From an uncultured Elusimicrobia bacterium (GTDB taxonomy: Bacteria > Elusimicrobiota > Elusimicrobia > UBA1565 > UBA9628): 64,000 bases of DNA. Shown piece after piece: positions 9,436 through 59,931 of this stretch (positions are counted from its first letter, which is position 1; each line of letters begins with the position of its first letter). Under the pieces are notes generated by a model. That model saw only the letters and a list, made by a program, of their open reading frames with translations, searched no databases and was not told where the DNA came from. The DNA is taken from the NCBI GenBank assembly GCA_964600165.1, contig CAZRIP010000003.1:4683-68682 (forward strand), in the 5' to 3' direction. The translations under genes were made by a program, and so were the position numbers.

Positions 9436-9444
9436 CGCCGAAGG

Positions 9445-12677: not shown

Positions 12678-12748
12678 TTCCCAGGCCTGGATTCGAACCA
12701 GGAATAACGGATTCAAAGTCCGCTGTGTTACCATTACACCACCTGGGA
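12678..12748 (-). tRNA. tRNA-Gln (anticodon UUG)
   Basis: The minus strand reads TCCCAGG-TG-GTGT-AATGGTA-ACAC-A-GCGGA-CTTTGAA-TCCGT-TATT-CCTGG-TTCGAAT-CCAGG-CCTGGGA-A. It has a 7-bp acceptor stem, D, anticodon and T arms, GTTCGAATC T-loop, anticodon TTG. 71 nt, no encoded CCA. Confidence 0.85.
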
Positions 12749-29849: not shown

Positions 29850-30431
29850 GTGGAGGCGCGGTTGAGCCCGAAGCAGTCTCGCGGACGCGCCGAGGCCTTC
29901 CCGGAGCTGATCCGGCTTTACGGCGAGAAGGCGTATAACTTCGCGTTCCGCCTGGCCGGCAACGAGCCCGACGCGCGGGACTTGACGTCAGAGGCCTTCG
30001 CGCGCGCGTTCGAGCATTTCAGCTCCTACGATCCGTCCAAGCCGTTCGATTCGTGGCTGCTGCGCATCTTGCGCAACATCTACCTCGACGGCGTGAGGCT
30101 TTACTCGCACGGTCACAGCGTCTCGCTCGACGCGGCGGCGCCGGTCGAGGGCTCGTCCTGGGAAGAGATACTTCCCGGCGATGATCCCGAGCTCGGCTCC
30201 GGCATCGAGCGGAAGCAAACCGACGAGCTGGTGCAGAAGGCGCTGGACGCTTTGCCGGTGCATTACAAGACGGCCGTGACTTTGTGCGACGTAGAGGGCC
30301 TTTCATACGAGCAGATCGGAGAGATCATGGCCTGCCCGGTCGGGACGGTCAGGTCCAGGATCCACGAGGGCCGCAAGATCATGAAAGAGACGTTTGAGAA
30401 GCTCGAAAAGAGCGGGGGACGAGCGCAATGA
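29850..30431 (+). CDS. RNA polymerase sigma-70 factor, ECF subfamily
   Basis: Region 2 (FPELIRLYGEKAYNFAFRL...DLTSEAFARAF) and region 4 (LPVHYKTAVTLCDVEGLSYEQIGEIMACPVGTVRSRIHEGRK). Confidence 0.85.
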   Translation: MEARLSPKQSRGRAEAFPELIRLYGEKAYNFAFRLAGNEPDARDLTSEAFARAFEHFSSYDPSKPFDSWLLRILRNIYLDGVRLYSHGHSVSLDAAAPVEGSSWEEILPGDDPELGSGIERKQTDELVQKALDALPVHYKTAVTLCDVEGLSYEQIGEIMACPVGTVRSRIHEGRKIMKETFEKLEKSGGRAQ

Positions 30432-30919
30432 ACGAGCACGATGAAGGCCAGCTGCTGTCGGCCTATCTCGACGGAGAGCTGTCCGCCGACGAGAACGCTC
30501 GCGTGAAGGTCCACCTCGACGGCTGCCCCGGCTGCCGCGTCGATCTCGAGGGCCTGCGCCACGCCAAGCACTTGCTCGCCGCCGCCCCGCGGCGCGCCAT
30601 GCCTCCCGAGCTCATCGCCGATTTGAACGAGCGCCTCGAGGCCCCGACCCTCGCCGACCGGTTGTTCGCCTGGCGCCGCTCGCCGCGCGTCATGGTCCCG
30701 GCGGGCGCGTTCGCGGCGCTCGCGCTGGCCGCCGCCTCTTGGTTCGTCTGGCAGAGCCGCGAGCCCGACCAATTCGTCCCGCTCGAGCCTCTTCTCGCCG
30801 CCCACTCCCGCTACGAAGCCGAGTCGCTCGTGCCGCAAGGAAGCCTCGTCGCGTCGAGCTACGCCTCGAATTTGACGGCCTTCTATGCGGATGGGCAGGA
30901 TCAAGACTCCGCTGAATAA
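30428..30919 (+). CDS. Transmembrane zinc-binding anti-sigma factor (HxxxCxxC 'ZAS' motif)
   Basis: LSAYLDGELSADENARVKVHLDGCPGCR is the HxxxCxxC zinc motif. One TM helix (AGAFAALALAAASWFVW) and a short C-terminal exo-domain. 4-nt overlap with the sigma gene. Confidence 0.7.
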   Translation: MNEHDEGQLLSAYLDGELSADENARVKVHLDGCPGCRVDLEGLRHAKHLLAAAPRRAMPPELIADLNERLEAPTLADRLFAWRRSPRVMVPAGAFAALALAAASWFVWQSREPDQFVPLEPLLAAHSRYEAESLVPQGSLVASSYASNLTAFYADGQDQDSAE

Positions 30920-31934
30920 GGCGCTCGCCGGCGCTCTGCTCGTCCTCGCGGCGACGCGCGGAGCGCGGGCCGAGGCGCCTCCGGACCCGCAGAAGCTCCT
31001 GTCCGCCGTCCTCGAGCCCTCCGCCGTGGCCTTCGAAGGGCGCATGATGGTCACGCATTGGTACGGAAAGCACCACAGCGAGGCGGAGGAAGTCCACGTC
31101 TACCATTTGCCGCCGAACCTGAGCCGGCGGGAGTTCACCGCGCCCGACGGCACGGTCACGAAGGTCGTCGTCAGCGACGGCGACCGCGAGGAAGTCCACC
31201 TCATCCGCCAGAAGAAGATCATCGAGGGCGACGCCGTCAAGTCGTTCGAGAAGCTCATGCCCGAGGACCGCGAGCTCGAGCTTTTGCTCAAGAACTACAA
31301 GCTCTCGGTGACGGGACCGGACCAGGTCGCCGGCCGCAAGGCCTGGGTCCTTCACATGGCGTCGGATCATCCCGGCAAGCCCTCGCAGGACTTCTGGGTC
31401 GATCAAGAGACGCACGCGATCCTCGAGAACCGCCGCTTTCTCCCGCACCGGCCCTTCGCCGCTTTGTCGCGCTACTCGCATTTCGAGACCAAGAAGACTC
31501 TCCCGGAAGATCTGTTCAAACTCGAGCTCTCGTCGAGCGCGATCCAGGGCAAGGGGCTCGAGCCCGATTTCATGAGCCTCGACGAGCTTTCCCAAACGAG
31601 CGGAAAGAAGGCGGCGTTCCCCGTGGCGCTCAACGACGGCTTCGTCTTCGAGAGCGCCGATTACTTGACGGTCGGCAAGCACACCGTCTTGCACGCGCGC
31701 TACACCGACGGGCTCGCCGTGATCTCGCTCTTTCAGACCGACCGTCCGGCGCGCAGCACGAGCAAGACGGACTCCCAGGTCGCCGCGCCGGCGTCCTCGG
31801 CCAAAGGCGCCGGGCAGCTGCGCCTGTCGGCCTCGGCGAAGGTCTTGAATTTCCGGCGCGGCCCGCGCTTTTACACGCTGATGGGCGACGTCTCGCGCGA
31901 GATGCTCCAAGAGATCGCCGCGCAAGTCAAGTAG
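30885..31934 (+). CDS. RseB/MucB-like anti-sigma-factor-binding periplasmic protein (LolA-like fold)
   Basis: Signal peptide. The N-terminal domain pattern FEGRMMVTHWYGK...EVHVYH...RREF.APDG fits RseB. Third gene of the sigma/anti-sigma cassette. Confidence 0.5.
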   Translation: MRMGRIKTPLNKALAGALLVLAATRGARAEAPPDPQKLLSAVLEPSAVAFEGRMMVTHWYGKHHSEAEEVHVYHLPPNLSRREFTAPDGTVTKVVVSDGDREEVHLIRQKKIIEGDAVKSFEKLMPEDRELELLLKNYKLSVTGPDQVAGRKAWVLHMASDHPGKPSQDFWVDQETHAILENRRFLPHRPFAALSRYSHFETKKTLPEDLFKLELSSSAIQGKGLEPDFMSLDELSQTSGKKAAFPVALNDGFVFESADYLTVGKHTVLHARYTDGLAVISLFQTDRPARSTSKTDSQVAAPASSAKGAGQLRLSASAKVLNFRRGPRFYTLMGDVSREMLQEIAAQVK

Positions 31935-34124: not shown

Positions 34125-37100
34125 ATGACCAAGCCACGCATCTCGACCAAGATCATCTCCGCCTCGCTGTCGACGGCGCTCGCGTTCCTTTCCTTCGCGC
34201 TGCCCGCGGCCCCGGCGCTCGGCGCCGAGCTGACCGCGGCGCCGACCATGGGCCTTCCGGCCGGCGGTTGGACGCCCGTCGTGGCCGGCCTCGCGACGCC
34301 CGCGAACCTCTCCCGGTTCTCGGGCGTCACGATGCAAGGCGTCGACGTCGCCGATCTTCTGACGCAAATCGGGCGCGTGAACTTAGCCGCTCCAGGCCAA
34401 TTCATTCCCGCGCAGGCTCTCGAAAAGCTCGCCGGTCTGCCGAAGAACGCCTCCGAGCGCGAGGTCGTGACGGCGCTGGCGCTCGCCGCCGCGCAGACGC
34501 GCGCCGACGCGACCGACGCGCTCGCGCAGCTGCGCTCGGGGGTCAAGGCCTCCGAGCTTCCGGCGCTCGCGGCTCGGCTCAACCGCGCCGACCTCGCCTT
34601 TACCCTGCTGACCTCCGAACAGCGCGCCGCGATCCCCGCCGCGTCGGCCGCCGTCTCGCGCGAAGTCGCGCAGACGCGCGGCGCGAACGCCGACCGCCTC
34701 GTGAAGATCGGCGTGACCGGCTGGAATAAGACGACGGACGCGACGGAAGTCTCCGGCTCCGAATCAACGACGCTCTCCCGGCTGTCTCCAGCGTCCGCCC
34801 AAGGCGAGAAGCGGACCGCCAACGCCATCGAGTATTCCCGCACCGTCGTCACGACGACGAAGACGACGACCAAGCTCGGCTGGAAGCAGGCGCTGCGCTA
34901 CGGCGCGCTGATCGCCGCCTTGCCCGTCGCCGTCTTCGCGCTGCCGCAGATGAGCCCGGTCGCGCTGATCGTCGCCGTCGGCGTGATGGGCTCGGTGGTC
35001 GCGCACGAGTACGCGCACCTCTTCATGCTCCGCCGGCTGGGCGACGACACGTCGACCAAGCAGAACGTCTCGGCCAACCCCTTCAAGCTCGTCGACCCCG
35101 TCGGCACCGTCGCCGTGCCGGTCATCACCTCGGCGCTCTCCGCGGCGTTAGGCGTCCCGGCGCTCTTCGGCTGGGCCAAGCCCGTGCCGGTCGACTTCAA
35201 CAAACTCGCCGACCCGCAGAAGGACGCGATGAAGGTCGCTCTCGCCGGGCCGGTCATGAACGCCGCTCTCGGCGCCGTCGCCTTCGGCGCCCTCGCGCTC
35301 TTCCACCCGGCCGGGGCCGCCGCGGCGTCGCTCTTGGCGCTCGGCAAGATCAACCTCGTGCTCGCCGTCTTCAACATGCTGCCGTTCTCGCCGCAGATGG
35401 ACGGCTTCAAGGTCGCCATCGGGATGCTGTCGCGCGAGCAGTACGCGAAATGGACCGAGAACAAGAGGCTGCCTGAAGCCTACCGCTCCACGTTCAACAA
35501 GCTCTTCGAGGGGCCGTCCGCGATCCTCAACTGGGTCGGCATGGACAGCCAGGGGCACGTCAACTTCGCCACGCGGGCGATCACCTTCGCCGCGTTCGGC
35601 GTCGTGGCCATCGCCGCGCACGCCTTCATCGGCGCGCCGTTCATCATCATGGCGCTCGTCTGCAGCTACGACTACTACTGCATCCGCGAGAAGATCCAAA
35701 ACGAGGAGGCGGTCAAGAAGCTGATCCCGATCATGCAGGGGATCGGCTCGGCGATCGCGCGCGTCGCGGAGGAAGACGAGTCCATCCAGTCGCAGATCAA
35801 CACGGAAGAGATCGAGCACGCGATGAAGAACGTGTTCGAGGACGTCCTCGATAAAGTCGTCGACTCGACGGGCTTCTCGAGCCTTTCGGACGATGAGAAG
35901 TGGTCGCGCTTCGAGGAGGCTTATCTCGACGCCGCCGTCGACTCGCTCTCGCGCAAGGGCATGTCGAAAGACTCCAAGGAAAAGATCCGCGAGACGCTGC
36001 GCCACCAATACGTGCGGGAGTACATCGACAAGCTGCGCGGCTGGGTGGAGGAGAACGACGTCTGGCGCAAGTGGCACAGCCCGAACCGCAAGAAGAAGAG
36101 CGGCATCAGCGAAGCGGTCAAGAAGAAGGCCGGCTCCCTCGGCTCCTCGGGCATGGCCGTCGTCGCGCTCGCGCTCGTGGGCGGCTCGATCCTCGCGCCG
36201 CACGGCGTCGGCGCGGCGCTGAGCCTGGCCGGCGCGGGGCTGATGATGGGCACGATCTCGGCCAAGAAGCCCAAGCCTTTCAAAGAAGCCCTCGAGGATT
36301 TGCGGCTCTCCGACAAGGAGCTCGCCGCGATGATCATGCTCCTGAAAGACATGACGCTCGACAACAAGCCGCCGCTGTCGGGCCGCATCGACGAGCTCTC
36401 GCGCGCGTATTCCGGCGTGACCGGACCGCGCGGCATCAAGGAGTCGGTCGCGCTCGTCGGCAAGCCCGGCACGGGCAAGACCGCGATCGTCGAGAAGCTC
36501 GCGCAGTCGGCCGTGATGGGACAGAGCCACGAGGGGACGCTTTCCCTTAAGAAGATGGAAGGCCGCTACGTCATCGAGGTCAACTCGACGCGCCTCATGC
36601 GCCAGGAAGACCCGGCCGGCACGCTCGAAGCCGTCATCGACATCCTCAACAAGCTCAACGAAGAAGACCCTCGCGCGGGCAACAAGGTGATCCTGTTCCT
36701 CGACGAGGCGCACGTCCTCTTCGACGGCGAGAAGGGCAAGCACGTCGCCAACACGTTGAAAAAGCCGGTCCGCGACGGCGCCGTCTCCATCATCCTCGCC
36801 ACGACGCTCGACGAGTACAAGAAGTACGTCGAGCCCGACGAAGCCCTCAAACGCCGCTTCCCGGCGATCTTCGTCGACGAGTCGACGACCGAGGAGACGC
36901 TGCGCGCGCTGGAAAACGCGAGCGCGTGGTACGAGAAGCGCTTCGGCGTGAAGGTCGACCCTTCCGCGCTCAAGGCCGCCGCCGAGTTGGCGCCCAAGTT
37001 CAACCACGAGGAGTATCTGCCCGGCAGCGCGTTCACCTACTTCGAGAACGCGGTCAAGTGGGCCGACTTCGACCTGCGCCGCGACTTGGTCGCGCTGTCG

Positions 37101-40100
37101 ATCGCGGATAAGATCAGCGATCTCCAGTACGCGATGAAGAAGCTCAAGGAGAACCTCCAGAAGACCGACCGGGTCACGGAGAATCTCAAGAAAGACGAGC
37201 CGACGACCGTCGGGTACTACAATCTCGCGATCAAGCTCAGCCAAGAGCTCGTCGAACTCTACAAGGAGCAGGCCGCGATCCCGGCCGAGGGCAAGCCCGT
37301 CGTCGACGGCGAGCTCGTCGGCATGGCGATCTCGCGCGAGACCGGCATCAAGTCCGGCCAGCTCACGCTCGGCAGCGAGCCGATAGAGAAATACCTCAAG
37401 ATGGAAGAAGAGGTCGGCAAGAAGGTCATCGGCCAGCCGGACGCGATCGCCGCGATCGCGCGCTCGGTGCGCCAGAACAAGGCCGGCCTCTCCGATCCCA
37501 AGCGGCCGCTCGGCGTCTATTATCTGACCGGCCCGACGGGCTCGGGCAAGACGCACCTCGCCAAGGAGCTCGCCCGCTTCCTCTTCGATGATCCGGAAGC
37601 CGTCGTGCGCGTCGACATGTCGGAGTACATGGAGAGCCACTCGGTCTCGAAGTTCATCGGCTCGCCCCCCGGCTACGTGGGCTTCGAGTCCGGCGGCCAG
37701 CTGACGGAGGCCGTCCGCAAGAAGCCGTACTCGGTCGTGCTCTTCGACGAGATCGAGAAGGCGCACCCGCAGGTCTGGCTGATGATGCTCCAGATCCTGG
37801 GCGAAGGGCGCCTGACCGACGGCCAGGGCAAGACGACGAGCTTCAAGAACACGATCATCCTCATGACGTCGAACCTCGGCATGCACGCCGTCGACGTCGA
37901 GCCTTACGTGAAGGCTTTCGAGGAGCTGCGCGCCAAGGAGCGGGCCGCCGCGGGCGACCGTATCGCCCTGCGCGAGCTCGAGCAGGAGAAATTAGAGCTC
38001 GCCGAGCGGCTCTCCGCGGAGACCAAGGCCGCGACGTCGGTGATCACGGCCCAGGCTTTCAAGGAGACTTACCCGCCGGAGTTCGAGGGCCGCTTATCGG
38101 CGCCTCCGATCGTCTTCAACCGCATCACGCCGGCGATGGCGCTGCAGATCGCGGAGTTGAATCTCAAGGAGCTGCGCGGCGTGCTCGGCTACGCCGGCCA
38201 CGAGTTCGCCTGGACGCCCGGCGTCGTCAAGAAGGTCGTCGACGAGGGCTTCTCGGTGCGGCTGGGCGCGCGCCCGCTGCAAAACGCCATCGACCGCCTG
38301 ATCACGCAGAACATCGCCACGGAGATCCTCCACACGGCGATGCGGAACGGCGGCAAAGTCGAGCCCTCGCGCATCGAGGCCGTGCTCGGCGAGGACGGCG
38401 AGGTCAAGCTCAACATCAAGTCGCTGCCTCCGAAGCAGGTCAAGAAGGGCGAGGCCCAGGGCGCGGCCAAGGAGCTCTTCACGACGGTGCTCGAGCAGAC
38501 GCTGACGGCGGCGGCCGACACCGCCGTGCCGGCGCCGACGCTCCAGATCATCGACGAGTGGGTCAAGGCCGCGCTCGCCGCCAACCCCGAGCAAACCTCG
38601 GTCGCTGACGCGGCTCAGCCCGAGACGGCGCAGCCTGCCGCTCCCGCGGACGAGGAGCAAGTCGCGCGCCCCGCGCCCGTCCAGGCTCCCGTCAGGCCCG
38701 GACTCCTGACGCTTGACGCGGCTTCGCCGCTCTCGGCGCAGGCGCGCAGCGTGGCCGCCGCCAACAACGACCCCGAGCTCAAGGACCCGGGCGTCCGACA
38801 GGCCGCCGCCGCGATCAAGGAAGCCATGGCCGGCTATCCCGAAGCCGCGCGCGAGGCCGTCCTGCGCACGATCGAAGATCAGAACGACCCCTACGTCGGC
38901 TGGCTCAAGATCTTCGTAGAGCAAGCCAAGCGCAACGGCGGAGGCAATCCGACCATCAAGTACGAGGTCAACGACGAAACGGCCCGCGTCGCCGTAGCTC
39001 GCACCGGCGCGCTGTCGAGCCGCGAGAAGGACTTGCTGACCCGGCACTTCACCGGCCTCGCGCCGTTGGACGCCTCGCAGGCGCGCACCCGCGTCGAGAC
39101 CTGGAACGTCCAGGACAGCGGCTCGGGCATGCGGCTGATGCTCGACCTCCATCGCATCCTCGCGAAGATCCCCGGCGCCAAGCTCGGCGTCGAGGTGGCG
39201 GGCGGCGGCGTCGAGTACTGGATCGAGATCCCGAAGCCCCAGACGCCCGCGGCGCCCGCGGCCGAACCGACTCCTCCGACCTCGGCGGAAGCGGCGCCTC
39301 CGGCGACGCAGCCGGCGGCCCCGCGCCCGCTCGTGGCGGCGGCCGAGGGCGCTCCCCAGTTCAACGAGGCGGGGAACGCCACGCCGCTCGCGGTGGCTAA
39401 GCGCGGGCTCTCGGACGATTCCATCAAGACCCACGCGACCCGCATCCGGAACGCGATGGCAGAGAAATCGTACGGCGGCGAGGCCAAAGGCGCCGCGGTG
39501 CTCTTTCTCGCTCGGGCCGCGGACTTCATGAAGTCCAACGCCGCCACAGGCGAAGGCGTCACCCTGATGTGGAGCGTCGACGAAAACGGCGCGCAGGTCC
39601 TGATCCACCGCGCGGGCCATCCTCTCAACGACGCCGAGATCGCGCGTCTCAACATCCTCATCGACAGCAGCACGGAGCTGAAGGCAAAGCTCGAAGCTGC
39701 GGGGGGTCGAGTGTTTTATGGCTCGGAAGAATTCTCGCAAGGGGGCAACGGCGCCTCCGTGTGGATCCAGCTCCCTCATCAAGCGCCGGCCGGCCAGGCC
39801 GACGGCAGCGCGGCGACGCCGCTCTCTTCCACGCAGGAAGGGACCGACGTCGCCGCGCTGCTGGCCAAGATCCACACGCCCTCGGAAGCCGGCAGCGATC
39901 CGCGGATCATGTGGGTCGCCTTCAGCGGAAGCGAAGAGGACGCGCTCGGGCAGCTCGAGGCGCGCGGCTTCGAGGTCCCGCTCGTGCGCCACGAGGACGG
40001 CTTCAAGCGCGCCCGGCTCATCGCTCCGACGGCCCAGGCCGCGGCGCGCGCCGCGCTGATGCTCGCCGTGAACCCGGATGTCCGGGAGATCGACCTGCAT

Positions 40101-42410
40101 CCCCAGGCGCGCTCGCTCATACGCGCCACGCCGGCGGCCGACATGTCTCACGCGCCCGAGGGCTTCACCTCCGTCGAGATCGACCGGGTTTCCCCGAACG
40201 CCGAGGACGCGGAGCTCGGCAACGCGAAGAATTCGATCCGGCGCGCCGCGCCTGAAGGCGACGCCCGCCGGCAGGCCGCGCTCGCCCGATTCGTGGACGA
40301 GACGGCGCGTAAAGCCAAGGAGTCCTCGCGCCCGGGCGACAAGATCTTCGTCGAATGGAAGGCGACGCCCGACGAGCTGCAGGTCTCGGTGCGCGTGCAA
40401 GGCGCCGCGGTCAACGCTCTCGAGTGGACCGGCTGGGCCGCGGGCTCCGTCTTCGCCGCCGAGCTCGCCGAGATGAACGGGATGGTGCACGTGGAGGGCG
40501 GCGCGGGCGGCGGACGCTTCACGCTTTCGCTGCCGGCTCCGCGCGCGGTCTCCGGGACCCGCCCGGGCTCCGGCGCGCCCGCGATGCGCGCGACGACCCA
40601 ATTCAAGGAGCAGCTCGTCACGCTGATGCGCGAGCTGATCCGCCAAAGAGAGCAGCGCGGCCTGGCGCTGCGCTACACGGCGGCGGAGATCGTCGCCGAA
40701 GCGTCGTCGCGCTCCGACATGGACTGGACGGCCGATTGGCTGCGCTTCGCCAGCGACCCCGAGGTCACCTCGGTCAATGAGGACAACGGCCCTCAAGTCG
40801 CCGCCGCCGGCATGGTCATCTCCAAGCACGGCAGCCGCTCGCAGGACGAGCGGCGCCTGATCGCCGCGATGAAGAAATTCCAATCGAGCGACAGCTGGGA
40901 CCATGCCCGTCCCGCGCGCACGCGCCTGATCCGTTCGCTCGCCAAGCTGCTGACGCCCGGAAACGACCGCCAGCTCGAGGAGCTCATCGCGCGCTACGAC
41001 CGCCAGAAGCAGCCGAACCTCCCGGCCTCCGAGAAGCTCCACGCCGACGTCGTGCTGGCGATCCAGACCGCGCTGCTGCGCAACGCCGGGCGCGACCAGT
41101 TCGACAAGCTCGTCACGCGCGACTGGAACAAGCGCCTTTTCGCCGAGACCTACGACTACGTCAAGCGCGTCAACCCCGATTATCTGCGCCGCGTCTACGA
41201 CGACTGGAAGGCCGGCAACACGCTCGACGGAGCGCGCCGCATGATGGCTCTCTGGGCCATCGCCGATTACGGCGACCGCGGCGACATGGCGACGCTCATG
41301 GCCTCCGTGCGCGAGGACCGCTGGATGGGCTCGTCGGTCAACCTCGAGGAGAAGAACTTCTTCGGCGAGGCGCTCGGCCGCATGGCGCAGCGCCTCGGCT
41401 ACGACGACGCCCTCAAGCACGACGCGCGGCTTTGGATGCGCGAGGGCATGGGCACCGGGGGCAGCTACCTGCGCATGGTGACGGCGGTCCAGATCGCCGG
41501 CGCGGTCGGCGACGCCGAGGACATGCCGTACTTGGAGCGGATCTTCCGCGTGAACCCGTCCGGCGGCGTCTCCTTCGAGCACGAGATGACGCAGATGGAA
41601 TCGACGGTCGCCTGGGGCAAGATCGCGCAGCGCGAGGGCTTGGTTCCCGAGTATTGGGGCACGCGCCAGGACCCGAGCGACCCCAATTCATTGCCGCTGC
41701 TGCAGGCCTGGCTCTCGGACACGAACTCCGGCGTCAACATGGCCGCCGCCCAAGCTCTCCTCGAGTTCGTCAAGCACGGCTCGCCCGCCCGCCCCGCCGC
41801 GGCCGCGGCGCGCCCGGCGCCACCCGTGGCCGACCACCCGTTCTTGCGCACCGGCGCGCCGTCGATGCCCGGCGGCGACTTGCGCACGTTCACCGAGACG
41901 CCGTCCGACGCGACCCTGCCCTACGCACGGTTGAGCGACGGCAATAAGGAGTTCGCCCGTCTTTGGCTCGACGCATTCGGCAGCATCGCGAGCGCCATTT
42001 TCGGCTTGGACTTCTCACGCCAGCTGCGCATGTCGCAGAACGCCTCGGCCGGCGCCGCCACGTTCGTGCTGTCTCAAGCCGGTGGGAGCGCGATCGAGGC
42101 CGCCCGCTTCGCCGAGTTCCGCCAGCTCGTGCTGCTTTTGCTCAACATCGCGCGCGACCCGCAGGACGTCCGCGCGCGCAAATGGACGGAACTCTCCGCG
42201 CGCTTCGTCGAGGTCCACACGGCTTACACGGTGCTCAACGGGCTGGTGAACCAAGCCGGCGTCTCGATGGGCGTCAATCATGACGCCTCGCTCCCGGGCG
42301 AGCCCGCGCGCGCCGAGATCTGGCTCAAGTTCGACGTCAGCGGCCGCCCGACGCCGCCCCGGCCGTCTAACCCGAGCTTGCGCGACGACGGCGACGACCT
42401 CCCGTTTTGA
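34125..42410 (+). CDS. Giant 2,761-aa multidomain membrane protein: signal peptide, M50/site-2-protease-like domain, ClpB-like double AAA+ module, three GHKL-like repeats, C-terminal alpha-helical repeats
   Basis: One uninterrupted ORF. GGGAGA SD lies 9 nt upstream of the ATG. M50 motifs: HEYAH (35004-35018) and NMLPFSPQMDG (35373-35405). NBD1: Walker A GKPGTGKT (36458-36481), Walker B ILFLDEAH, then ATTLDEYKKYVEPDEALKRRF. NBD2: GPTGSGKT (37530-37553), VVLFDEIEKAHPQVW, MTSNLG, sensor-2 GARPLQNAIDR. Three repeats ending GGGVEYWIEIP, GGNGASVWIQLP and GGAGGGRFTLSLP. Confidence 0.85.
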   Translation: MTKPRISTKIISASLSTALAFLSFALPAAPALGAELTAAPTMGLPAGGWTPVVAGLATPANLSRFSGVTMQGVDVADLLTQIGRVNLAAPGQFIPAQALEKLAGLPKNASEREVVTALALAAAQTRADATDALAQLRSGVKASELPALAARLNRADLAFTLLTSEQRAAIPAASAAVSREVAQTRGANADRLVKIGVTGWNKTTDATEVSGSESTTLSRLSPASAQGEKRTANAIEYSRTVVTTTKTTTKLGWKQALRYGALIAALPVAVFALPQMSPVALIVAVGVMGSVVAHEYAHLFMLRRLGDDTSTKQNVSANPFKLVDPVGTVAVPVITSALSAALGVPALFGWAKPVPVDFNKLADPQKDAMKVALAGPVMNAALGAVAFGALALFHPAGAAAASLLALGKINLVLAVFNMLPFSPQMDGFKVAIGMLSREQYAKWTENKRLPEAYRSTFNKLFEGPSAILNWVGMDSQGHVNFATRAITFAAFGVVAIAAHAFIGAPFIIMALVCSYDYYCIREKIQNEEAVKKLIPIMQGIGSAIARVAEEDESIQSQINTEEIEHAMKNVFEDVLDKVVDSTGFSSLSDDEKWSRFEEAYLDAAVDSLSRKGMSKDSKEKIRETLRHQYVREYIDKLRGWVEENDVWRKWHSPNRKKKSGISEAVKKKAGSLGSSGMAVVALALVGGSILAPHGVGAALSLAGAGLMMGTISAKKPKPFKEALEDLRLSDKELAAMIMLLKDMTLDNKPPLSGRIDELSRAYSGVTGPRGIKESVALVGKPGTGKTAIVEKLAQSAVMGQSHEGTLSLKKMEGRYVIEVNSTRLMRQEDPAGTLEAVIDILNKLNEEDPRAGNKVILFLDEAHVLFDGEKGKHVANTLKKPVRDGAVSIILATTLDEYKKYVEPDEALKRRFPAIFVDESTTEETLRALENASAWYEKRFGVKVDPSALKAAAELAPKFNHEEYLPGSAFTYFENAVKWADFDLRRDLVALSIADKISDLQYAMKKLKENLQKTDRVTENLKKDEPTTVGYYNLAIKLSQELVELYKEQAAIPAEGKPVVDGELVGMAISRETGIKSGQLTLGSEPIEKYLKMEEEVGKKVIGQPDAIAAIARSVRQNKAGLSDPKRPLGVYYLTGPTGSGKTHLAKELARFLFDDPEAVVRVDMSEYMESHSVSKFIGSPPGYVGFESGGQLTEAVRKKPYSVVLFDEIEKAHPQVWLMMLQILGEGRLTDGQGKTTSFKNTIILMTSNLGMHAVDVEPYVKAFEELRAKERAAAGDRIALRELEQEKLELAERLSAETKAATSVITAQAFKETYPPEFEGRLSAPPIVFNRITPAMALQIAELNLKELRGVLGYAGHEFAWTPGVVKKVVDEGFSVRLGARPLQNAIDRLITQNIATEILHTAMRNGGKVEPSRIEAVLGEDGEVKLNIKSLPPKQVKKGEAQGAAKELFTTVLEQTLTAAADTAVPAPTLQIIDEWVKAALAANPEQTSVADAAQPETAQPAAPADEEQVARPAPVQAPVRPGLLTLDAASPLSAQARSVAAANNDPELKDPGVRQAAAAIKEAMAGYPEAAREAVLRTIEDQNDPYVGWLKIFVEQAKRNGGGNPTIKYEVNDETARVAVARTGALSSREKDLLTRHFTGLAPLDASQARTRVETWNVQDSGSGMRLMLDLHRILAKIPGAKLGVEVAGGGVEYWIEIPKPQTPAAPAAEPTPPTSAEAAPPATQPAAPRPLVAAAEGAPQFNEAGNATPLAVAKRGLSDDSIKTHATRIRNAMAEKSYGGEAKGAAVLFLARAADFMKSNAATGEGVTLMWSVDENGAQVLIHRAGHPLNDAEIARLNILIDSSTELKAKLEAAGGRVFYGSEEFSQGGNGASVWIQLPHQAPAGQADGSAATPLSSTQEGTDVAALLAKIHTPSEAGSDPRIMWVAFSGSEEDALGQLEARGFEVPLVRHEDGFKRARLIAPTAQAAARAALMLAVNPDVREIDLHPQARSLIRATPAADMSHAPEGFTSVEIDRVSPNAEDAELGNAKNSIRRAAPEGDARRQAALARFVDETARKAKESSRPGDKIFVEWKATPDELQVSVRVQGAAVNALEWTGWAAGSVFAAELAEMNGMVHVEGGAGGGRFTLSLPAPRAVSGTRPGSGAPAMRATTQFKEQLVTLMRELIRQREQRGLALRYTAAEIVAEASSRSDMDWTADWLRFASDPEVTSVNEDNGPQVAAAGMVISKHGSRSQDERRLIAAMKKFQSSDSWDHARPARTRLIRSLAKLLTPGNDRQLEELIARYDRQKQPNLPASEKLHADVVLAIQTALLRNAGRDQFDKLVTRDWNKRLFAETYDYVKRVNPDYLRRVYDDWKAGNTLDGARRMMALWAIADYGDRGDMATLMASVREDRWMGSSVNLEEKNFFGEALGRMAQRLGYDDALKHDARLWMREGMGTGGSYLRMVTAVQIAGAVGDAEDMPYLERIFRVNPSGGVSFEHEMTQMESTVAWGKIAQREGLVPEYWGTRQDPSDPNSLPLLQAWLSDTNSGVNMAAAQALLEFVKHGSPARPAAAAARPAPPVADHPFLRTGAPSMPGGDLRTFTETPSDATLPYARLSDGNKEFARLWLDAFGSIASAIFGLDFSRQLRMSQNASAGAATFVLSQAGGSAIEAARFAEFRQLVLLLLNIARDPQDVRARKWTELSARFVEVHTAYTVLNGLVNQAGVSMGVNHDASLPGEPARAEIWLKFDVSGRPTPPRPSNPSLRDDGDDLPF

Positions 42411-43183
42411 CGCCGCTCGCCGAATTCGGACCCTATAAGCTCGCTGGCCTTGCCGCCCTGATCTTCTTTGGCGGCGTCGTCGACGCCCTGGCGGGCGGCG
42501 GCGGCCTAGTGACGATCCCCGCCTACCTCGCCTTCGGCCTCGATCCTCGGTTCCTGCTCGGGACCAACAAACTCAGTTCCTGCATCGGCACGGCGGCCGC
42601 CTCGCTCAACTATCAAAGGAACCAGCGCCTCGACTTGGCGGCGATGGCGCCCGGCTTCGCGGCGGCGCTGCTCGGGGCGGTCCTGGGAGCGACGGCGGCG
42701 AAGTCCCTCGGCGCGAGCGGCATCCGGATCCTCGTGCTCGTCGCGCTGCCGCTCGTCGGCTGGTTCATCTACTCGAAGCACGGGTTCGGGCGGGAGGACC
42801 GCAGCGCCTCGCTCGGCGGCGCGCTCAAGAGGCGCGAAACGGCCCTCGCGCTGCCGATCGGGGTTTACGACGGCTTTTTCGGTCCCGGGACAGGGCTTTT
42901 CTTCGCGCTAGCCCAGGTGCGCTGGTGCCGCCGCGACTTGCTCGGCGCGACCGTGCGCGCGAAGTTCTTGAATCTCACGACCAATCTCGCCGCCCTCGCC
43001 ACTTTTCTGCTCGCCGGTCGCGTCGACATCCCGCTCGGACTGCTGATGGCCGCGGCGAGCGTCGCGGGAAACTGGACAGGTTCGCATCTGGGCCTCAAGA
43101 ACGGCCCAAAGGCGATCCGCCCCGCCGTCCTTCTCGTCTGTTTCGGCCTTTTCGCGAAACTTTTGCTCGACTATCTGAAGTAA
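42407..43183 (+). CDS. Sulfite exporter TauE/SafE-family membrane protein (DUF81)
   Basis: GGVVDALAGGGGLVTIPAYL is the TauE signature. The TTG start overlaps the giant gene's stop (TTGA). Confidence 0.75.
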   Translation: MTPLAEFGPYKLAGLAALIFFGGVVDALAGGGGLVTIPAYLAFGLDPRFLLGTNKLSSCIGTAAASLNYQRNQRLDLAAMAPGFAAALLGAVLGATAAKSLGASGIRILVLVALPLVGWFIYSKHGFGREDRSASLGGALKRRETALALPIGVYDGFFGPGTGLFFALAQVRWCRRDLLGATVRAKFLNLTTNLAALATFLLAGRVDIPLGLLMAAASVAGNWTGSHLGLKNGPKAIRPAVLLVCFGLFAKLLLDYLK

Positions 43184-54865: not shown

Positions 54866-55459
54866 ATGGTCGTCTTTTTCGATATCGGGAACGTCTTGCT
54901 GCGCTACGACTCGCGCGAAGTGGCCAAACGCATCGCCTGGGCGCTGCGCAGCCACCCGCTCAAGGTCTTGCGCATCCTGTGGGCCAGCGATCTGGTCGAC
55001 GCCGTCGAGCGCGGCGCGCTGCCGCCGGACAAGCTCTTCGCCCTTTTTCGCGACGAGCTCGGCTTTGAAGGTGATTTCGAGAGCTTCCGTAAACTGTGGT
55101 GCGACCATTTCACCCTCGAGCGGCGCAACGCCGCGCTGCTCAAGTCGCTGGCCGCGCGCCACCGCGTCTTCCTTCTATCGAACACCAACGCCTTGCACTA
55201 CGAGTTCATCAAGGAGCGCTACGCGTTCGCGCGGCAGGCCCATGGAGCGGTGCTGTCTTACGAGCTCGGCCTGCGCAAGCCCGAGGCCGCGATCTACGAG
55301 GCCGCGCTCAAAACCGCGGGCGCCAAGGCGAGCGAGTCGGTCTTCATCGACGATCTCGAGGAGAACGTGCGCGGCGCGCGCAGGGTCGGCATGGCCGCGA
55401 TCCGCAACGCGCCGGGCGTCGATCTCAAGAGCGAGCTGGCGAAGCTCGGCGTGCGCTAG
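54866..55459 (+). CDS. HAD-superfamily hydrolase (subfamily IA)
   Basis: Motif I FFDIGNVL, motif II LLSNTN, motif IV FIDDLEENV. Confidence 0.75.
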   Translation: MVVFFDIGNVLLRYDSREVAKRIAWALRSHPLKVLRILWASDLVDAVERGALPPDKLFALFRDELGFEGDFESFRKLWCDHFTLERRNAALLKSLAARHRVFLLSNTNALHYEFIKERYAFARQAHGAVLSYELGLRKPEAAIYEAALKTAGAKASESVFIDDLEENVRGARRVGMAAIRNAPGVDLKSELAKLGVR

Positions 55460-57221
55460 GCTCGTCGGGGTACTTCTCGATCACGGCTCGCGCCGCGCGG
55501 CGCGTGAGGGCGTGATATGCGGGCGCCGCCTCCGCGAAGATTTCTCGCGCGACGGCGCGCCCCTTCGGCGTTCGGCCCAGGGCTTGATAGAGCGGCCGGA
55601 CGAATTTGACGCGGCCGACGCTCGAAAGCAGCGCTCTCGCCTGAGGAAAAGCTTCCTCTCGTCCGGCGGCCGCGGACAGGCACAGCCAGAGGCACAGTAC
55701 CTCGCAGTTGCCGCGCCCGTCGAGCCCGAGCAGGGCCTCGAGGCTCGCGCAGTCCGCGGCGTCGAGACCGTCCGGCAGCGCCTGCAGATAGACGAGCAGC
55801 TCGGCCGCGCTCCAGCGCGAGGCCTGCGCGGCGTCCGGGCGCCGTCCCTCGCGCCAGCCGGCGGCGAGCTCGGATAGAGCCCTGAGCCTCTCCGACACGA
55901 AGCAAGGCGCGCTCGCCGACAGACCCGCTCCGTCGAGCCATTCCCGGGCCCCGACGCGCGCGAGCAGGCCGGGAAAGGAGCTCTCGACGAAGGCGCAGAA
56001 CTCCTCGGTCGTGATGCTCGAGAAGCGATAGCGCCGCATGTACTCCTTGACGAAAAGCTCGAAGGGCTCTTTTCCCGCCGCGCGCTCGAGGACGACCAGG
56101 AAGCGCGCGCCCTTCTCGTAGGGCACGACGGAGTACGCGTCGTCGGGATCGACGCCCGTCAGACGCGTGCGCAGGCGCGTGAGCTCGGGCTTGTCCTTGA
56201 AGCGCTCGAGCGCGTCGTCCAAGTCCTTCTGTCCGATCGCCCAGGCGAGCGACTCGGCCCGCTCGCCGCGCAGAGCGCCGATGATGCGCCGCTCGGCCCA
56301 GACGGTCCAGCCCTCGTTGAGCCAGAAGTGCTCGGCCGTGGCGTTCGTGACGAGGTTTCCCGTCCAGCTGTGAGCGAGCTCGTGCGCGACGACGTCGACC
56401 AAGCTCCGGTCGCCCGCGAGGATCGTCGGCGTCAGGAAAGTCATCCGGGGATTTTCCATCCCTCCGTAAGGAAACGAAGGCGGCAGCACGAGCATGTCGT
56501 AGCGATCCCAGGGATAAGGCCCGAACATGGACTCAGCCCGCGCGAGCATCTCCTCGACGCCCGCGAACTCCCACGCGGCCTTGTCGACGACCTCCGGCTC
56601 GGCCCAGACGCGCGAGCGCGGCGAAAGGTCGCGCGACGAAAGCTCGCCCGCGGCCAGCGCCAAGAGATAGCTCGGGATCGGCTGCGGCATCGAAAAGCGA
56701 AAGGCGCGGCGTCCGGGACCCGCCGAGGCGTCGCCCGCGGGGCCGGCGCTCATCACGGCGGTCAGCCCTTCCGGCACGACAATCGCGGCCTCGTAGCTCA
56801 CTCGCGCCGCGGCGCTGTCTTGGCAAGGCGCGACGCTGCGCGCGTGAATCGGCTGGCACTGGCTGAACAAGAACGGCCGGCGCCGCGAGGACGTTTGTTC
56901 CGGAGACAACCACTGCAAGCCCTCGGCTTCCGGGCTCGTCTCGTAGCGGATCGTCACGCTGCCGGTCTTCTCGGGGAGGGTCAGCCGCAACCGCCGGCCG
57001 AGGATCGGCTCCTGCGCGCCGAGCTCATAGGGGACGCTCGCGCCCAGGATCGTCAGGCCCTTCGTGTCGAGGTCTAGCGGGCCCGCGCCCGGAGCGATGA
57101 GCGAGATCTCGATTTCTCCTTTTATAATCCGTCGGTCGAAGTCGAGGTCGAGCTTGAGCCGCCACGCTTTCGAGCGCGGCTGCGCGTCGTCGAAATAAGA
57201 ATGCGGGTCGACGCGCGACAC
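55425..57221 (-). CDS. M1-family zinc aminopeptidase (LTA4 hydrolase / cold-active aminopeptidase-like)
   Basis: GGMENPRMTF (GAMEN), HELAHSWTGNLVTN (HExxH), WLNEGWTVW. GTG start ~57221 (VSRVDPHSYF...). The Arg-rich 60 codons upstream are rejected. Confidence 0.85.
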   Translation of the reverse strand: MSRVDPHSYFDDAQPRSKAWRLKLDLDFDRRIIKGEIEISLIAPGAGPLDLDTKGLTILGASVPYELGAQEPILGRRLRLTLPEKTGSVTIRYETSPEAEGLQWLSPEQTSSRRRPFLFSQCQPIHARSVAPCQDSAAARVSYEAAIVVPEGLTAVMSAGPAGDASAGPGRRAFRFSMPQPIPSYLLALAAGELSSRDLSPRSRVWAEPEVVDKAAWEFAGVEEMLARAESMFGPYPWDRYDMLVLPPSFPYGGMENPRMTFLTPTILAGDRSLVDVVAHELAHSWTGNLVTNATAEHFWLNEGWTVWAERRIIGALRGERAESLAWAIGQKDLDDALERFKDKPELTRLRTRLTGVDPDDAYSVVPYEKGARFLVVLERAAGKEPFELFVKEYMRRYRFSSITTEEFCAFVESSFPGLLARVGAREWLDGAGLSASAPCFVSERLRALSELAAGWREGRRPDAAQASRWSAAELLVYLQALPDGLDAADCASLEALLGLDGRGNCEVLCLWLCLSAAAGREEAFPQARALLSSVGRVKFVRPLYQALGRTPKGRAVAREIFAEAAPAYHALTRRAARAVIEKYPDEPSARRASPARS

Positions 57222-58075
57222 TAGCCTCTCCGGGCGAGAGCCTGCGCGCAGTAGATGAGGTTGACGAACGTCATCGCGCGCGTGACTTGGCCTATGCGGT
57301 TGCCGGGCATCGTCGCGTGAGCGACGGCAGCGGGCAGCGACACGGCGTCGATGTTGCCTTGATAAGAAACGTCGACGACGCTGGCGCCCGGCCGGATCCA
57401 ATCCGTCGGGATGTTGAACTCGACGTCGGGAACCGCCGTCACGACGACGTCCGCGCGCCGGATGCAGTCTTCCATGTCCGATTGGCGCGTCTTATCGAAG
57501 CATTCGACGACCGTCGCGCCGAGGTTCTCGAGCATCAAACCCAGCGGCTTGCCCACGCGCATCGAGTGGTTGACGATCGTCACGAACCGCCGCTCGAGCG
57601 GCACGCCGTGGTGCTGGAGCGTCTTGACCACGGCCTTCGCCGTGGCGGGAACGACGCACTTGATGCCGCGCTCCTCGTCCATGTAGCGCTTGTACTTGAC
57701 CAAGTAGCCCAGGTTGAGCGAGTGCAGCCCCTCGACGTCCTTGTGCGGCGAAACGAGGTCCATCAGGTCCTTGTCGGCGACCTGGCCGCCGATCGGATAG
57801 AAGATCATGACGCCGGTGACTCTCGGATCGTCGTTGAGCGCGCCGATCGAAGACAGCAGCTCGCCCTCGTCTTTCGGCTCGAGCTTGCGCGCCTCGATGC
57901 CCAGGCGCGCCGCGTCCTTGAGCATCAAGTCGCGGTATTGCAGCGAGCCCGCGTTATGGCCCGGCGCGAAGAGCACCGTGGCCAAGGTCGGCGGCGTGGT
58001 CAGCTTGGCCTTAGCCTCGACGACCCAGTCGAAAAAGCGATGGGCGACGGCGCGGCAATCGAGCGTCTCGGGCAC
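57221..58075 (-). CDS. folD: Bifunctional methylenetetrahydrofolate dehydrogenase / methenyltetrahydrofolate cyclohydrolase
   Basis: FolD fold. NAD(P)-binding VVGRS-like region and a conserved C-terminal catalytic region. Confidence 0.9.
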   Translation of the reverse strand: MPETLDCRAVAHRFFDWVVEAKAKLTTPPTLATVLFAPGHNAGSLQYRDLMLKDAARLGIEARKLEPKDEGELLSSIGALNDDPRVTGVMIFYPIGGQVADKDLMDLVSPHKDVEGLHSLNLGYLVKYKRYMDEERGIKCVVPATAKAVVKTLQHHGVPLERRFVTIVNHSMRVGKPLGLMLENLGATVVECFDKTRQSDMEDCIRRADVVVTAVPDVEFNIPTDWIRPGASVVDVSYQGNIDAVSLPAAVAHATMPGNRIGQVTRAMTFVNLIYCAQALARRG

Positions 58076-58110: not shown

Positions 58111-59841
58111 TCAGCGCGCGGCGAGCTCATCGACGCGCCGGTCTTGAGACAGCATCGACGGACGCTTCGAGACGAGCCAAGCGTCGCCGTAGATCGCCGT
58201 CTTGCCGTCGGCCAGCAGAAAGACGGCTCCGTCTTGCAGCATCAGATCGTTGCCTCGAGCGTCGAAGTCGTGAACGCGCGTGATCTTCCCGCGCGAGAGC
58301 GCGATCGCCTTGACGCCGGCTTGGGCGAGCGAGATCGCGGGCTTGTTGAAACCCCCGACCTTCATCTTGAGGCCGTAGGCCTTCTCGAGCGCGGCGAGGT
58401 CGCCGGAGTTAAGACGTTGCTCTTCGAGCGCCCGCGGCGCGATCACTCCGGCGTCGACGGCTTTCTCGACGAGCGCGCGCAGGGCCTGAAACCCGTCCGC
58501 GAAGCTCTTGCCGTCTAGCTTGGTGCGGTCGCCGAAGAGCTCCGTCCCGTTCTCGCCCGGCTTGCCGTCGCCGTCGCCGTCGAAGACGAGCAGGCCCGTC
58601 CCAGGCGCCAGATCGTCGATCCACTGCAAGGAGTCCTTTCGGCCTTTGCCGTCGATGTCGTAGAGCACGCTGCCGGCCGCGGTTTGCGGCCCTCTTCCCG
58701 CGAGATCGAAGACCAGCGGCGAGGCTTGCCAGATTTGCTCGCCGACGATCTGGTCGCCGTTCAAAAATTCCAAACCGTATGTCCTTTTTGAGCCGAATGG
58801 TTTCGAATCGTCAAAGGCGATCACCTCGGCCTTGACGCTCGTGATGGGCCCGATAACCTGTCCATCTTGCGTGACAAGCGCCGGGCCGTATCCGCGAGAG
58901 CCCGGCACAACTTTATATTTCCGCTGCGGCCTCCGAGCCGATGGCTGGACCGCGGCCGTCGCCGCGAGCGGTTGGACCGCCACAGGCGCCGCGACTGCGG
59001 GTGACGCGATCACCGCAGACAAAACGACGGCCGGGATGCTCGGCGCGGCCGCTTGCGCCACCGTCGTCGTCGCCGCGTAATCGGCGCTCGAGCCCCCTCC
59101 TGTAAAACGCGTGCGTGCACGGCCCTTGGGCGTCGGGGCCGCGCCCTTGTGCTCGACGTTCGCGGCGATGCGCCGCTCGGGCTTCGGAGCGGCGACCGTC
59201 TGCGCCGCCGCGGCCACGAGATATTTGACCCCCTGGCCCACGTCGGCGGTGTACGCATCGAGCTTGCTCAAAGTCGTGGTCAGGGCCGTGGCGAGGCCGC
59301 CGGAAGATTTGGCGGCGACGGCAGGGGCGATGCCGGCCGCGTCGAGCTCGCTTGCGTAGACGAGCCTCTCGGATCCGTCCTCGCCCGCAGGCTCCCAGGA
59401 CGCGAGGCGGCGCGTCGCGGCGGCCGCGCGCCGGGCCTTCGCCTTGACGGTCGGCGTCTCGAATCGAATCGGGTCGATCGCGGCGACGCGCTCCGGCCAG
59501 GTCCAGGAGGCCGCGACCCGCGCGGCCGCCCAATCCTCGGCCGAGCACGGCCCGTGATCGGCGACCGGAAGCGGAGCGGCGACGGGTTCCGCGACGACCG
59601 CCGGCGGCGCGGTAAGCAAAGTCCGGGGCTCGAGAGCGGGAGCGGACCGATCCGGCGTCGCCGCGGCCGCGTCGGCCGGAATAGGCGGCTGAGCCGCGTC
59701 CTTCGGTTGATACGAAAACCAGCCCGCCGCCGCCGTCGCGGCGAGCACGCCGGCCCCCAGTAGCGCCTCGCGGCGCCCCAGCGCCCGCCGCCGCGACGGC
59801 CGCGGCGTGTAGGAGCTCTCTGAAATCGTTTGGGGGATCAT
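58111..59841 (-). CDS. Hypothetical membrane-anchored exported protein with Ca-binding-like DxDGDG motifs
   Basis: Start at the ATG at 59841 (MIPQTISESSY..., then a TM helix). Ala/Pro-rich linker. C-terminal domain with DIDGKGRKD, VFDGDGDGKPGENG and LADGKT. The 284 upstream codons are antisense to the divergent gene. Confidence 0.5.
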   Translation of the reverse strand: MIPQTISESSYTPRPSRRRALGRREALLGAGVLAATAAAGWFSYQPKDAAQPPIPADAAAATPDRSAPALEPRTLLTAPPAVVAEPVAAPLPVADHGPCSAEDWAAARVAASWTWPERVAAIDPIRFETPTVKAKARRAAAATRRLASWEPAGEDGSERLVYASELDAAGIAPAVAAKSSGGLATALTTTLSKLDAYTADVGQGVKYLVAAAAQTVAAPKPERRIAANVEHKGAAPTPKGRARTRFTGGGSSADYAATTTVAQAAAPSIPAVVLSAVIASPAVAAPVAVQPLAATAAVQPSARRPQRKYKVVPGSRGYGPALVTQDGQVIGPITSVKAEVIAFDDSKPFGSKRTYGLEFLNGDQIVGEQIWQASPLVFDLAGRGPQTAAGSVLYDIDGKGRKDSLQWIDDLAPGTGLLVFDGDGDGKPGENGTELFGDRTKLDGKSFADGFQALRALVEKAVDAGVIAPRALEEQRLNSGDLAALEKAYGLKMKVGGFNKPAISLAQAGVKAIALSRGKITRVHDFDARGNDLMLQDGAVFLLADGKTAIYGDAWLVSKRPSMLSQDRRVDELAAR

Positions 59842-59931
59842 GGCTCTAGTATAGGGTCCGCGCGCGCGCGCATCCACCGCGCCACGGCAAAAGGAACGCA
59901 AAAAAAGCGTAAATGGTACAATCGCTCCTCG

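Follow-up and report, generated by a model that had tools for sequence, protein, structure and literature searches.

What might a two-ring Hsp100 ATPase be doing in the middle of a giant membrane protein? The question is raised by a single gene in a 64,000-nucleotide stretch of DNA (hereafter the window) from an uncultured Elusimicrobia bacterium (assembly GCA_964600165.1, contig CAZRIP010000003.1, positions 4,683 to 68,682). The gene lies on the + strand at 34125-42410, stop codon included, and its product in the open reading frame (ORF) list has 2,761 amino acids (aa); full-length homologues of the same architecture are found in other Elusimicrobiota. Coordinates are window positions unless marked aa, and residues are numbered within the 2,761-aa product; all features of the protein are on the + strand. 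A first-pass annotation of the interval 36350-38360 had described a complete ClpB/ClpC-type AAA+ module embedded in a membrane protein and had favoured a disaggregase or unfoldase over a ClpP partner. This interval corresponds to aa 743-1412, is contained in one uninterrupted ORF, and is flanked on its N-terminal side by ~710 aa of membrane region and on the other by ~1,350 aa of cytoplasmic tail. Hsp100, site-2 protease (S2P), GHKL, and HEAT domains, of which the protein is built, are all known; their combination, together with a remodelled first nucleotide-binding domain (NBD1), is new.

The two-ring Hsp100 module

Matches to the module are far above chance in Pfam, NCBIfam, the Protein Data Bank (PDB), and BLASTP. 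Pfam gives 180.9 bits for AAA_2 (gathering cut-off 27), 61.2 for AAA (21.2), 43.2 for ClpB_D2-small (21.9), and 26.7 for AAA_lid_9 (22.8), while the NCBIfam ClpB model is matched at E 1e-127. In the PDB, ClpB (1qvr) is found at E 1.9e-104 and ClpC at E 1.3e-99, the latter in one collinear stretch, and E. coli ClpB is recovered by BLASTP at E 4e-113 with 35% identity over 708 columns. The claim of a complete two-ring module thus held.

NBD1 (aa 746-988, 36360-37088) is delimited by Pfam AAA and AAA_lid_9, by alignments with ClpB and ClpA, and by a motif census. It carries the Walker A motif GKPGTGKT (aa 779-786, 36459-36482), the Walker B motif ILFLDE (aa 856-861, 36690-36707), sensor-1 ILATT (36792-36806), and the arginine fingers ALKRRF (aa 907-912, 36843-36860). 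A short middle (M-like) region of 68 aa (aa 989-1056, 37089-37292), placed by family alignment with E. coli ClpB and ClpA, leads to NBD2 with its D2-small part (aa 1057-1412, 37293-38360), assigned from Pfam AAA_2 and ClpB_D2-small and from alignments. There, the Walker A motif GPTGSGKT (aa 1136-1143, 37530-37553) is followed by the pore loop GYVG (aa 1183-1186, 37671-37682), the Walker B motif VVLFDE (aa 1204-1209, 37734-37751), sensor-1 MTSNLG (aa 1247-1252, 37863-37880), the arginine finger PPEFEGRL (aa 1317-1324, 38073-38096), and sensor-2 GARPL (aa 1381-1385, 38265-38279). In the alignment, ALKRRF, ILATT, MTSNLG, PEFEGRL, and GARPL pair with their ClpB equivalents. All motif strings quoted in the first-pass annotation were located, GPTGSGKT exactly where it had been placed and GKPGTGKT one base away (36458-36481 had been given). 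That annotation had named replacement of Walker B or arginine-finger residues as the mark of a pseudo-ATPase; no such replacement was seen, as ILFLDE, VVLFDE, ALKRRF, and PEFEGRL are all intact. Judged by its sequence, the module is a complete class-I Hsp100 with intact catalytic residues rather than a pseudo-ATPase, and the two-ring ATPase is apparently active.

A site-2 protease domain in the same chain

The description of the module as embedded in a membrane protein was right in that the ATPase is tethered to a membrane domain, but the module itself forms a cytoplasmic block and does not lie in the membrane. Nor does the notion of a passive anchor hold for the membrane part, which is an M50/S2P domain: its catalytic motifs are intact, and its S2P core fold is confirmed. 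The domain (aa 256-511, 34890-35657) contains HEYAH (aa 294-298, 35004-35018) and NMLPFSPQMDG (aa 417-427, 35373-35405), which correspond to HExxH and NxxPxxxxDG and are intact in all 30 family sequences over which the M50 motifs were counted. The window protein matches Pfam PF02163 at 29.3 bits (cut-off 27.2) over a part of the profile, positions 3-102 of 221, and precomputed PF02163 matches are on record for all homologues. In addition, the M50 core is ~45-50% identical to stand-alone proteins of ~226 aa annotated as "site-2 protease family" in Proteobacteria and other phyla. Pfam detected no PDZ, CBS, or Peptidase_M41 domain. The membrane part is classified as an M50/site-2 metalloprotease domain, for which zinc-dependent cleavage is predicted.

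A Sec signal peptide (aa 1-33, 34125-34223) is predicted from the hydropathy scan, with a hydrophobic core at residues 10-28 and an end reading ...ALG/AE, where cleavage is inferred; the N-termini of the family members P0001, P0002, and P0004 resemble it. It precedes an Ala-rich region of low conservation and with no Pfam match (aa 34-255, 34224-34889), which is presumably periplasmic because a signal peptide stands before it. After the M50 domain comes a family-specific juxtamembrane helical domain (aa 512-671, 35658-36137) that begins with CSYDYYC (35661-35681) and ends with WHSPNRKKK. Hydropathy and family alignment then indicate a hydrophobic hairpin (aa 672-710, 36138-36254), probably a re-entrant or two-helix membrane hairpin, so that both of its flanks, and hence the ATPase, should be cytoplasmic. 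In the clade of P0003, the hairpin is not kept as such in the family alignment.

The motif C[ST]YDY[YW]C (aa 513-519) recurs without exception in 30 of 30 family sequences and stands at the boundary between membrane and cytoplasm, right after the last M50 helix. With Asp and Tyr lying between two cysteines that are five residues apart, it is a candidate metal or redox site.

Distribution and conservation of the fusion

The size of the family was established by two approaches beyond the full-length homologue search, which gave at least four proteins. In a genome scan covering one genome per GTDB species with a profile of the M50 and juxtamembrane regions, the full region was found in 25 loci, of which 24 are labelled as metagenome-assembled genomes of Elusimicrobia/Elusimicrobiota and one only as "bacterium"; in other phyla, only the small M50 core was matched. 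An exhaustive profile search of 1.84 billion cluster representatives returned 21 with the full region at E<1e-98, followed by a sharp drop to the stand-alone M50 proteins of ~226 aa at about E 1e-39. Wherever the contig is long enough, the ORF has 2,398-3,042 aa and contains HExxH and two Walker A motifs. The fusion is thus present in about 20 independent Elusimicrobiota assemblies and nowhere else in the searched sets. Two clades can be distinguished, that of the window protein (with loci L002, L003, and L006) and the P0003/P0004 type. The family proteins are annotated at source as "AAA family ATPase" or "ClpC", labels that overlook the protease.

The motif census took in the 20 sequences with complete modules. 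All of them keep HExxH, NxxPx(3-5)DG, C[ST]YDY[YW]C, and both Walker A and Walker B motifs, as well as the RR finger, the NBD2 pore tyrosine, sensor-1, PEFxxR, and GARP. With such retention, both enzymatic parts appear to be under purifying selection.

A trivial origin of the gene, by misassembly of an M50 gene with a clpB/clpC gene or as a decaying pseudogene, might be read from two long-read assemblies in which the gene is interrupted (L008 and L019). It is contradicted by the uninterrupted 8.3-kb ORF of the window and the 2,398-3,042-aa ORFs of at least 11 other independent assemblies, by the conservation of all catalytic motifs, and by the juxtamembrane and R1 domains (the latter in the C-terminal tail), which occur only in the fusion context. 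Since the fusion recurs with conserved motifs across the family, an assembly chimera is excluded; this origin as a whole is scarcely conceivable and is effectively refuted by the family survey. At L008 (9167-15306), the M50 and AAA+ parts are encoded in two ORFs that share 4 nt, possibly a genuine split into two genes, and at L019 (9008-17176, in the complete genome CP096137.1), the gene is spread over at least three frames. These interruptions may be either frameshift errors or real splitting.

A separate Hsp100 class without a ClpP-docking motif

Which Hsp100 is this? The Pfam cut-offs are passed, but all the NCBIfam equivalog cut-offs tested are missed: ClpB (TIGR03346 427.7 vs 1232.1; NF008118 365 vs 1417), ClpA (357 vs 993), ClpV (TssH; 342 vs 885), ClpG (327 vs 1900), and ClpK (321 vs 1900). 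As the shortfall is wide in every case, the module is assigned, on the basis of these profile scores, to the Hsp100 superfamily as a separate class that is not an orthologue of any named Clp. The order of NBD1, middle region, NBD2, and D2-small is shared with ClpB and ClpC, and so are the Walker A and B motifs, the fingers, sensors 1 and 2, and GYVG. The middle region has a ClpC-like length, unlike the ~120-aa M-domain of ClpB; alignments with ClpB break there, and that with ClpC runs through collinearly. No Clp_N domain was matched by Pfam at E<=0.01, in line with what had been claimed from the sequence letters, and the N-terminus is occupied by the M50 membrane block. The long M-domain and the N-domain, two features that define ClpB, are therefore both lacking.

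The signatures had been called near-canonical, which is true of the Walker motifs, sensors, fingers, and NBD2 pore tyrosine and fails for the NBD1 pore loop. In the alignments, the ClpB sequence AGAKYRGEFEE pairs with MRQEDPAGTLE (aa 825-835, 36597-36629), a degenerate loop from which the tyrosine has been lost, while the tyrosine in GYVG of NBD2 is retained. None of the 20 complete modules has a KYRG pore loop in NBD1, and the replacement itself is kept as [QSE][ED][DEN]P in 19 of the 20. This conserved replacement suggests a new function rather than decay.

The second remodelled site lies in NBD2, where the segment between sensor-1 and the arginine finger is 64 aa long, ~40 more than in the aligned E. 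coli ClpB. This family-specific helical insert (aa 1253-1316, 37881-38072, delimited by alignments) occupies the position of the IGL ClpP-docking loop of ClpA, whose SIGL pairs with KLEL of the window protein. The docking tripeptide [ILV]G[FL] is absent from the insert of the window protein, which agrees with the earlier claim of a missing ClpP-docking loop, and the inserts of the 19 other members contain no ClpP tripeptide besides a single IGM in P0001. Across the family, the insert measures 45-158 aa and is poorly conserved in sequence, in contrast to the LGF/IGF loop found at this position in ClpC and ClpA. An unfoldase that depends on ClpP and docks to it in a non-canonical manner, for instance via this insert, is favoured by the presence of an insert in all members exactly at the ClpP-loop position. 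Given the variable length and sequence, the lack of a hydrophobic tripeptide apart from the one IGM, and the ~1,350 aa of C-terminal domains after NBD2 that would crowd the docking face, we consider it very improbable. Lack of a ClpP loop need not mean that a protease partner is lacking, as the protein most likely carries its own.

The same data bear on another explanation, in essence that of the first-pass annotation, in which the protein is a membrane-tethered ClpB-like disaggregase or unfoldase that acts alone, with the M50 domain serving as an anchor or for an unrelated function. In sequence, ClpB is the nearest relative, a ClpP loop is lacking, and an HspR-like gene lies upstream in one clade, HspR-type regulation being typical of clpB and dnaK regulons. 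What speaks against such a protein, apart from the missing ClpB hallmarks (an M-region of 68 aa instead of ~120, and no Clp_N), is the state of the membrane domain. A mere anchor would have no need to keep HExxH and NxxPxxxxDG in 30 of 30 sequences or to be ~45-50% identical to free-standing M50 enzymes, and the fusion is kept across the whole family. We therefore rate an unfoldase with a merely structural M50 domain as unlikely.

A possible mechanism and its precedents

How, then, could the two activities work together? We regard it as a serious, if still tentative, possibility that the protein is a ClpP-independent, membrane-anchored Hsp100 unfoldase that works with its own intramembrane protease according to an FtsH-like logic. 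The Hsp100 part would hexamerise in the cytoplasm, and the M50 block would stand in for the N-domain at the N-terminus of NBD1; because the block is attached there, the substrate-entry face of the ring would be turned towards the membrane. Hsp100 rings thread their substrates from the NBD1 face to the NBD2 face, and the active sites of S2Ps open towards the cytoplasm. The ring would grip cytoplasmic tails or loops of membrane proteins mainly by the NBD2 pore tyrosines, as the lack of a pore tyrosine in NBD1 suggests, and NBD1 would act more as an assembly or ATPase ring, as does p97 D1. Pulling would unwind or extract transmembrane segments, which the adjacent M50 sites would cut, and the ring would then clear the released fragments by threading them from NBD1 to NBD2, away from the membrane. 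ClpP would not be used; the logic would be that of FtsH, or that of an RseP-then-ClpXP relay condensed into a single chain. Under heat or proteotoxic stress, such a protein would serve in membrane-protein quality control, a use suggested by one clade, in which an HspR-like repressor gene immediately precedes the giant gene.

Several points weigh against this mechanism. The PF02163 score is marginal, and the entry ring, NBD1, lacks an aromatic pore loop. In members of the P0003/P0004 clade, ~260-570 aa made up of small domains and Pro/Ala-rich linker lie between the membrane part and NBD1, and the ring therefore need not sit tightly under the protease. To our knowledge, the known S2Ps work without ATP. 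Moreover, the mechanism gives no role to the 1,350-aa GHKL/HEAT tail, and the HspR-like gene with its promoter-like element is absent from the clade of the window itself.

The nearest conceptual precedents are ClpI and FtsH. FtsH is likewise anchored in the inner membrane, combines within one chain a zinc metalloprotease and a cytoplasmic AAA+ ring whose entry is turned to the membrane, and is heat-shock related, as proposed here. It differs in having one AAA+ ring and a soluble M41 chamber placed after the ATPase, whereas here two Hsp100 rings follow an intramembrane M50 domain. ClpI has been described in Actinomycetota as a third class of double-ring Clp unfoldases (PMC10149685). It is presented there as a lineage-restricted Hsp100 class recognised by sequence analysis, with an intact ATPase, a ClpC-length M-domain, a variable N-terminus, and some members that lack the LGF motif (PMC10149685), all of which resembles the present family; ClpI belongs to another phylum, and the two are compared here by description only. 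In contrast to ClpB and ClpC, the module of the window protein has no Clp_N, carries QEDP in place of the NBD1 pore tyrosine, and forms one chain with a membrane protease and a tail of 1,350 aa.

Among site-2 proteases (RseP, SpoIVFB, mjS2P, and the ~226-aa stand-alone proteins), HExxH and NxxPxxxLDG are common ground; the differences here are the lack of Pfam PDZ and CBS domains, the added CSYDYYC juxtamembrane domain, and the fusion to an ATPase. S2Ps are regarded as ATP-independent and as requiring, besides prior site-1 cleavage, a substrate with helix-destabilising residues; separate cytoplasmic AAA+ proteases then take over the products. Known pathways deliver S2P cleavage products to Clp unfoldases, and the RseP-then-ClpXP relay acts in the degradation of anti-sigma factors, e.g., RsgI (PMC12203970). 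Like the proposed mechanism, the relay consists of intramembrane cleavage by an S2P followed by an AAA+ unfoldase acting on the released fragment, but it is divided among separate proteins, with ClpX as the unfoldase and degradation finished by ClpP, whereas here there is one chain with an Hsp100 and no ClpP-docking motif. No description of an S2P-AAA+ or M50-Hsp100 fusion was found in the full-text literature searched.

A phylum-wide fusion of this kind is a "Rosetta stone" that argues that both activities can be mechanically coupled, and it offers one protein in which ATP-driven extraction and intramembrane cleavage could be studied together. The Hsp100 family would gain a membrane-tethered class without an N-domain or a ClpP loop, and the remodelled NBD1 pore loop bears on the division of labour between the two rings. 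A bolder version, which we hold to be rather doubtful, would add the protein to FtsH and the membrane-bound LonB as a third architectural class among membrane AAA+ proteases. In it, six same-chain site-2 protease domains would form a crown through which the hexameric double-ring Hsp100 mechanically feeds or extracts transmembrane substrates, intramembrane proteolysis would be ATP-driven, and the pseudo-kinase GHKL/HEAT tail would be a substrate or regulator platform at the exit face, the whole being a hallmark of Elusimicrobiota under HspR heat-shock control. If ATP-driven intramembrane proteolysis were shown, the protein would be more than a new combination of modules.

The C-terminal tail

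The tail opens with R1 (aa 1547-1706, 38763-39242), a Bergerat-fold GHKL domain of the SpoIIAB/RsbW type, present behind the AAA+ module in all members whose length covers the region. Its AF2 model has the GHKL fold; structure prediction drew on nine family sequences. BLASTP self-comparison of the tail revealed no repeats; profile-profile comparison with hhalign did. R2 (aa 1763-1886, 39411-39782) is a paralogue of R1 (probability 98.4%, E 1e-14), and R3 (aa 2027-2139, 40203-40541) is related to both R2 (97%, E 8e-11) and R1 (80%); the Bergerat fold is assigned to R1-R3. A C-terminal domain, R4 (aa 2605-2740, 41937-42344), is possibly also of the R type, its weak similarity to R1 (68%) extending only over the last 36 columns. 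The window protein thus has three to four GHKL copies in tandem. The only HATPase_c signal is a weak one in R3 (13.7 vs 26.4 bits, E 0.087, profile positions 5-110 of 111). In our own reading of the family consensus, the place of the N-box Asn is held by an invariant Lys and DxGxG is absent, and R1 is probably non-catalytic. Compared with SpoIIAB/RsbW, the R domains differ in these two respects, in their tandem arrangement (three to four), and in being fused to an unfoldase. Between R3 and R4 lies a HEAT/ARM-like helical repeat region (aa 2157-2600, 40593-41924), recognised by Pfam HEAT_2 (28.2 bits, cut-off 27.7) and by alignments and common to the other clade.

An HslV-like peptidase was considered for R1, since a four-sequence profile had matched only HslV chains (E 0.01). 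The identity was rejected because two profiles of 16 sequences lost the match and the AF2 model has a GHKL fold.

Between R2 and R3 stands a small domain (aa 1907-2003, 39843-40133), a candidate repeat noticed by eye from its sequence pattern. It shares the ending h-x-V-x-V-x-P with segments of P0003 (aa ~730-1190) and P0004 (aa ~650-860); there is one candidate copy in the window tail and several in the P0003/P0004 clade, where they follow the M50 part and precede the AAA+ part. Both the small repeats and the R-type GHKL domains differ in copy number and position between members. A subtilisin-prodomain (I9-like) identity of the repeats was not adopted: the sole match, Fervidolysin_NPro-like at E 0.02, is below the cut-off and concerns only the P0003 repeats, and the window segment 39843-40133 itself gave none.

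Genomic neighbourhood

Do neighbouring genes indicate the process in which the protein takes part? In the clade of the window (the window, L002, L003, and L006), the gene order is ECF sigma factor, zf-HC2 anti-sigma factor, RseB-like protein, SSF symporter, giant gene, TauE. In the window, the ECF sigma factor gene is at 29850-30431, the zf-HC2 anti-sigma factor gene at 30428-30919, and the MucB/RseB-like gene at 30885-31934, so that 2.2 kb separate the end of the trio from the giant gene; L002 and L006 share the trio with the window, in each case 2-6 kb upstream. Its closeness to a site-2 protease may be relevant or may merely reflect inherited gene order.

This neighbourhood brings in a further explanation, a dedicated signalling device in which the M50 domain cuts a specific anti-sigma factor or another membrane-tethered regulator by regulated intramembrane proteolysis, the Hsp100 strips or unfolds the fragment, and the GHKL domains have a sigma factor or partner-switching protein as their ligand. 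It would unite the RseP-then-ClpXP relay in one chain, with gene regulation rather than bulk quality control as the outcome. Besides the trio, the SpoIIAB/RsbW-like fold of the tail domains is consistent with it, and the order of an S2P followed by a Clp unfoldase is a known one (PMC12203970). The trio, however, is absent near the gene of the other clade, and in the clade of the window it may be inherited synteny only, since SSF and TauE are conserved to the same degree in that clade. The GHKL domains have no ATP-binding motifs, the number of R domains varies between members, and the linkage to HspR indicates stress proteostasis instead. A regulatory role of this sort therefore seems to us improbable, and the unfoldase working with its own intramembrane protease in quality control remains the reading that we prefer.

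The other clade has a different order, with MgtE on the opposite strand, a small MerR-family gene, the giant gene, and a thioredoxin/TPR gene. The MerR-family gene is directly upstream on the same strand in at least 10 loci, with 58-92% identity (L001, where the gene is at 9415-9684 and the element described below at 9685-9897, and also L008, L009, L018, L019, L021, L022, L023, L025, and L027). Its top NCBIfam model is HspR, at 69.8 bits below the cut-off of 105 and well ahead of other MerR families. Between this gene and the giant gene, a conserved 'CCTATTGATTCAGATCAAC...TATAAT' forms a promoter-like -35/-10 pair, and the palindrome TTGAT-N4-ATCAA over the -35 is a candidate operator. No neighbour gene common to both clades was found, and for this reason, the protein looks self-contained.

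Downstream of the giant gene in the window, a gene for a TauE/SafE-family membrane protein (42407-43183) overlaps its stop codon by 4 nt. L003 and L006 likewise have a TauE homologue behind the giant gene, and in L002 one begins before the contig runs out. This overlap and the recurrence of TauE in the clade suggest that the two genes are translationally coupled there. Beyond TauE, L003 continues with the housekeeping genes IF3, L35, L20, PheST, ZapA, and MgsA.

Two other assignments were tried and dropped. As an anti-phage defence protein, the giant protein received generic AAA matches only from PADLOC, and a canonical ClpB elsewhere in the window, sought in the 860-aa ORF at 58111-60693 (-), is not supported, as this ORF has no NCBIfam match and may be a shadow ORF in DNA of 66% GC. 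Elsewhere in the window, the genes are ordinary chromosomal ones: a leukotriene-A4-hydrolase-like M1 aminopeptidase is encoded at 55425-57401 (-), a large TPR protein at 13932-16133 (-), and tRNA-Gln(TTG) at 12678-12748 (-).

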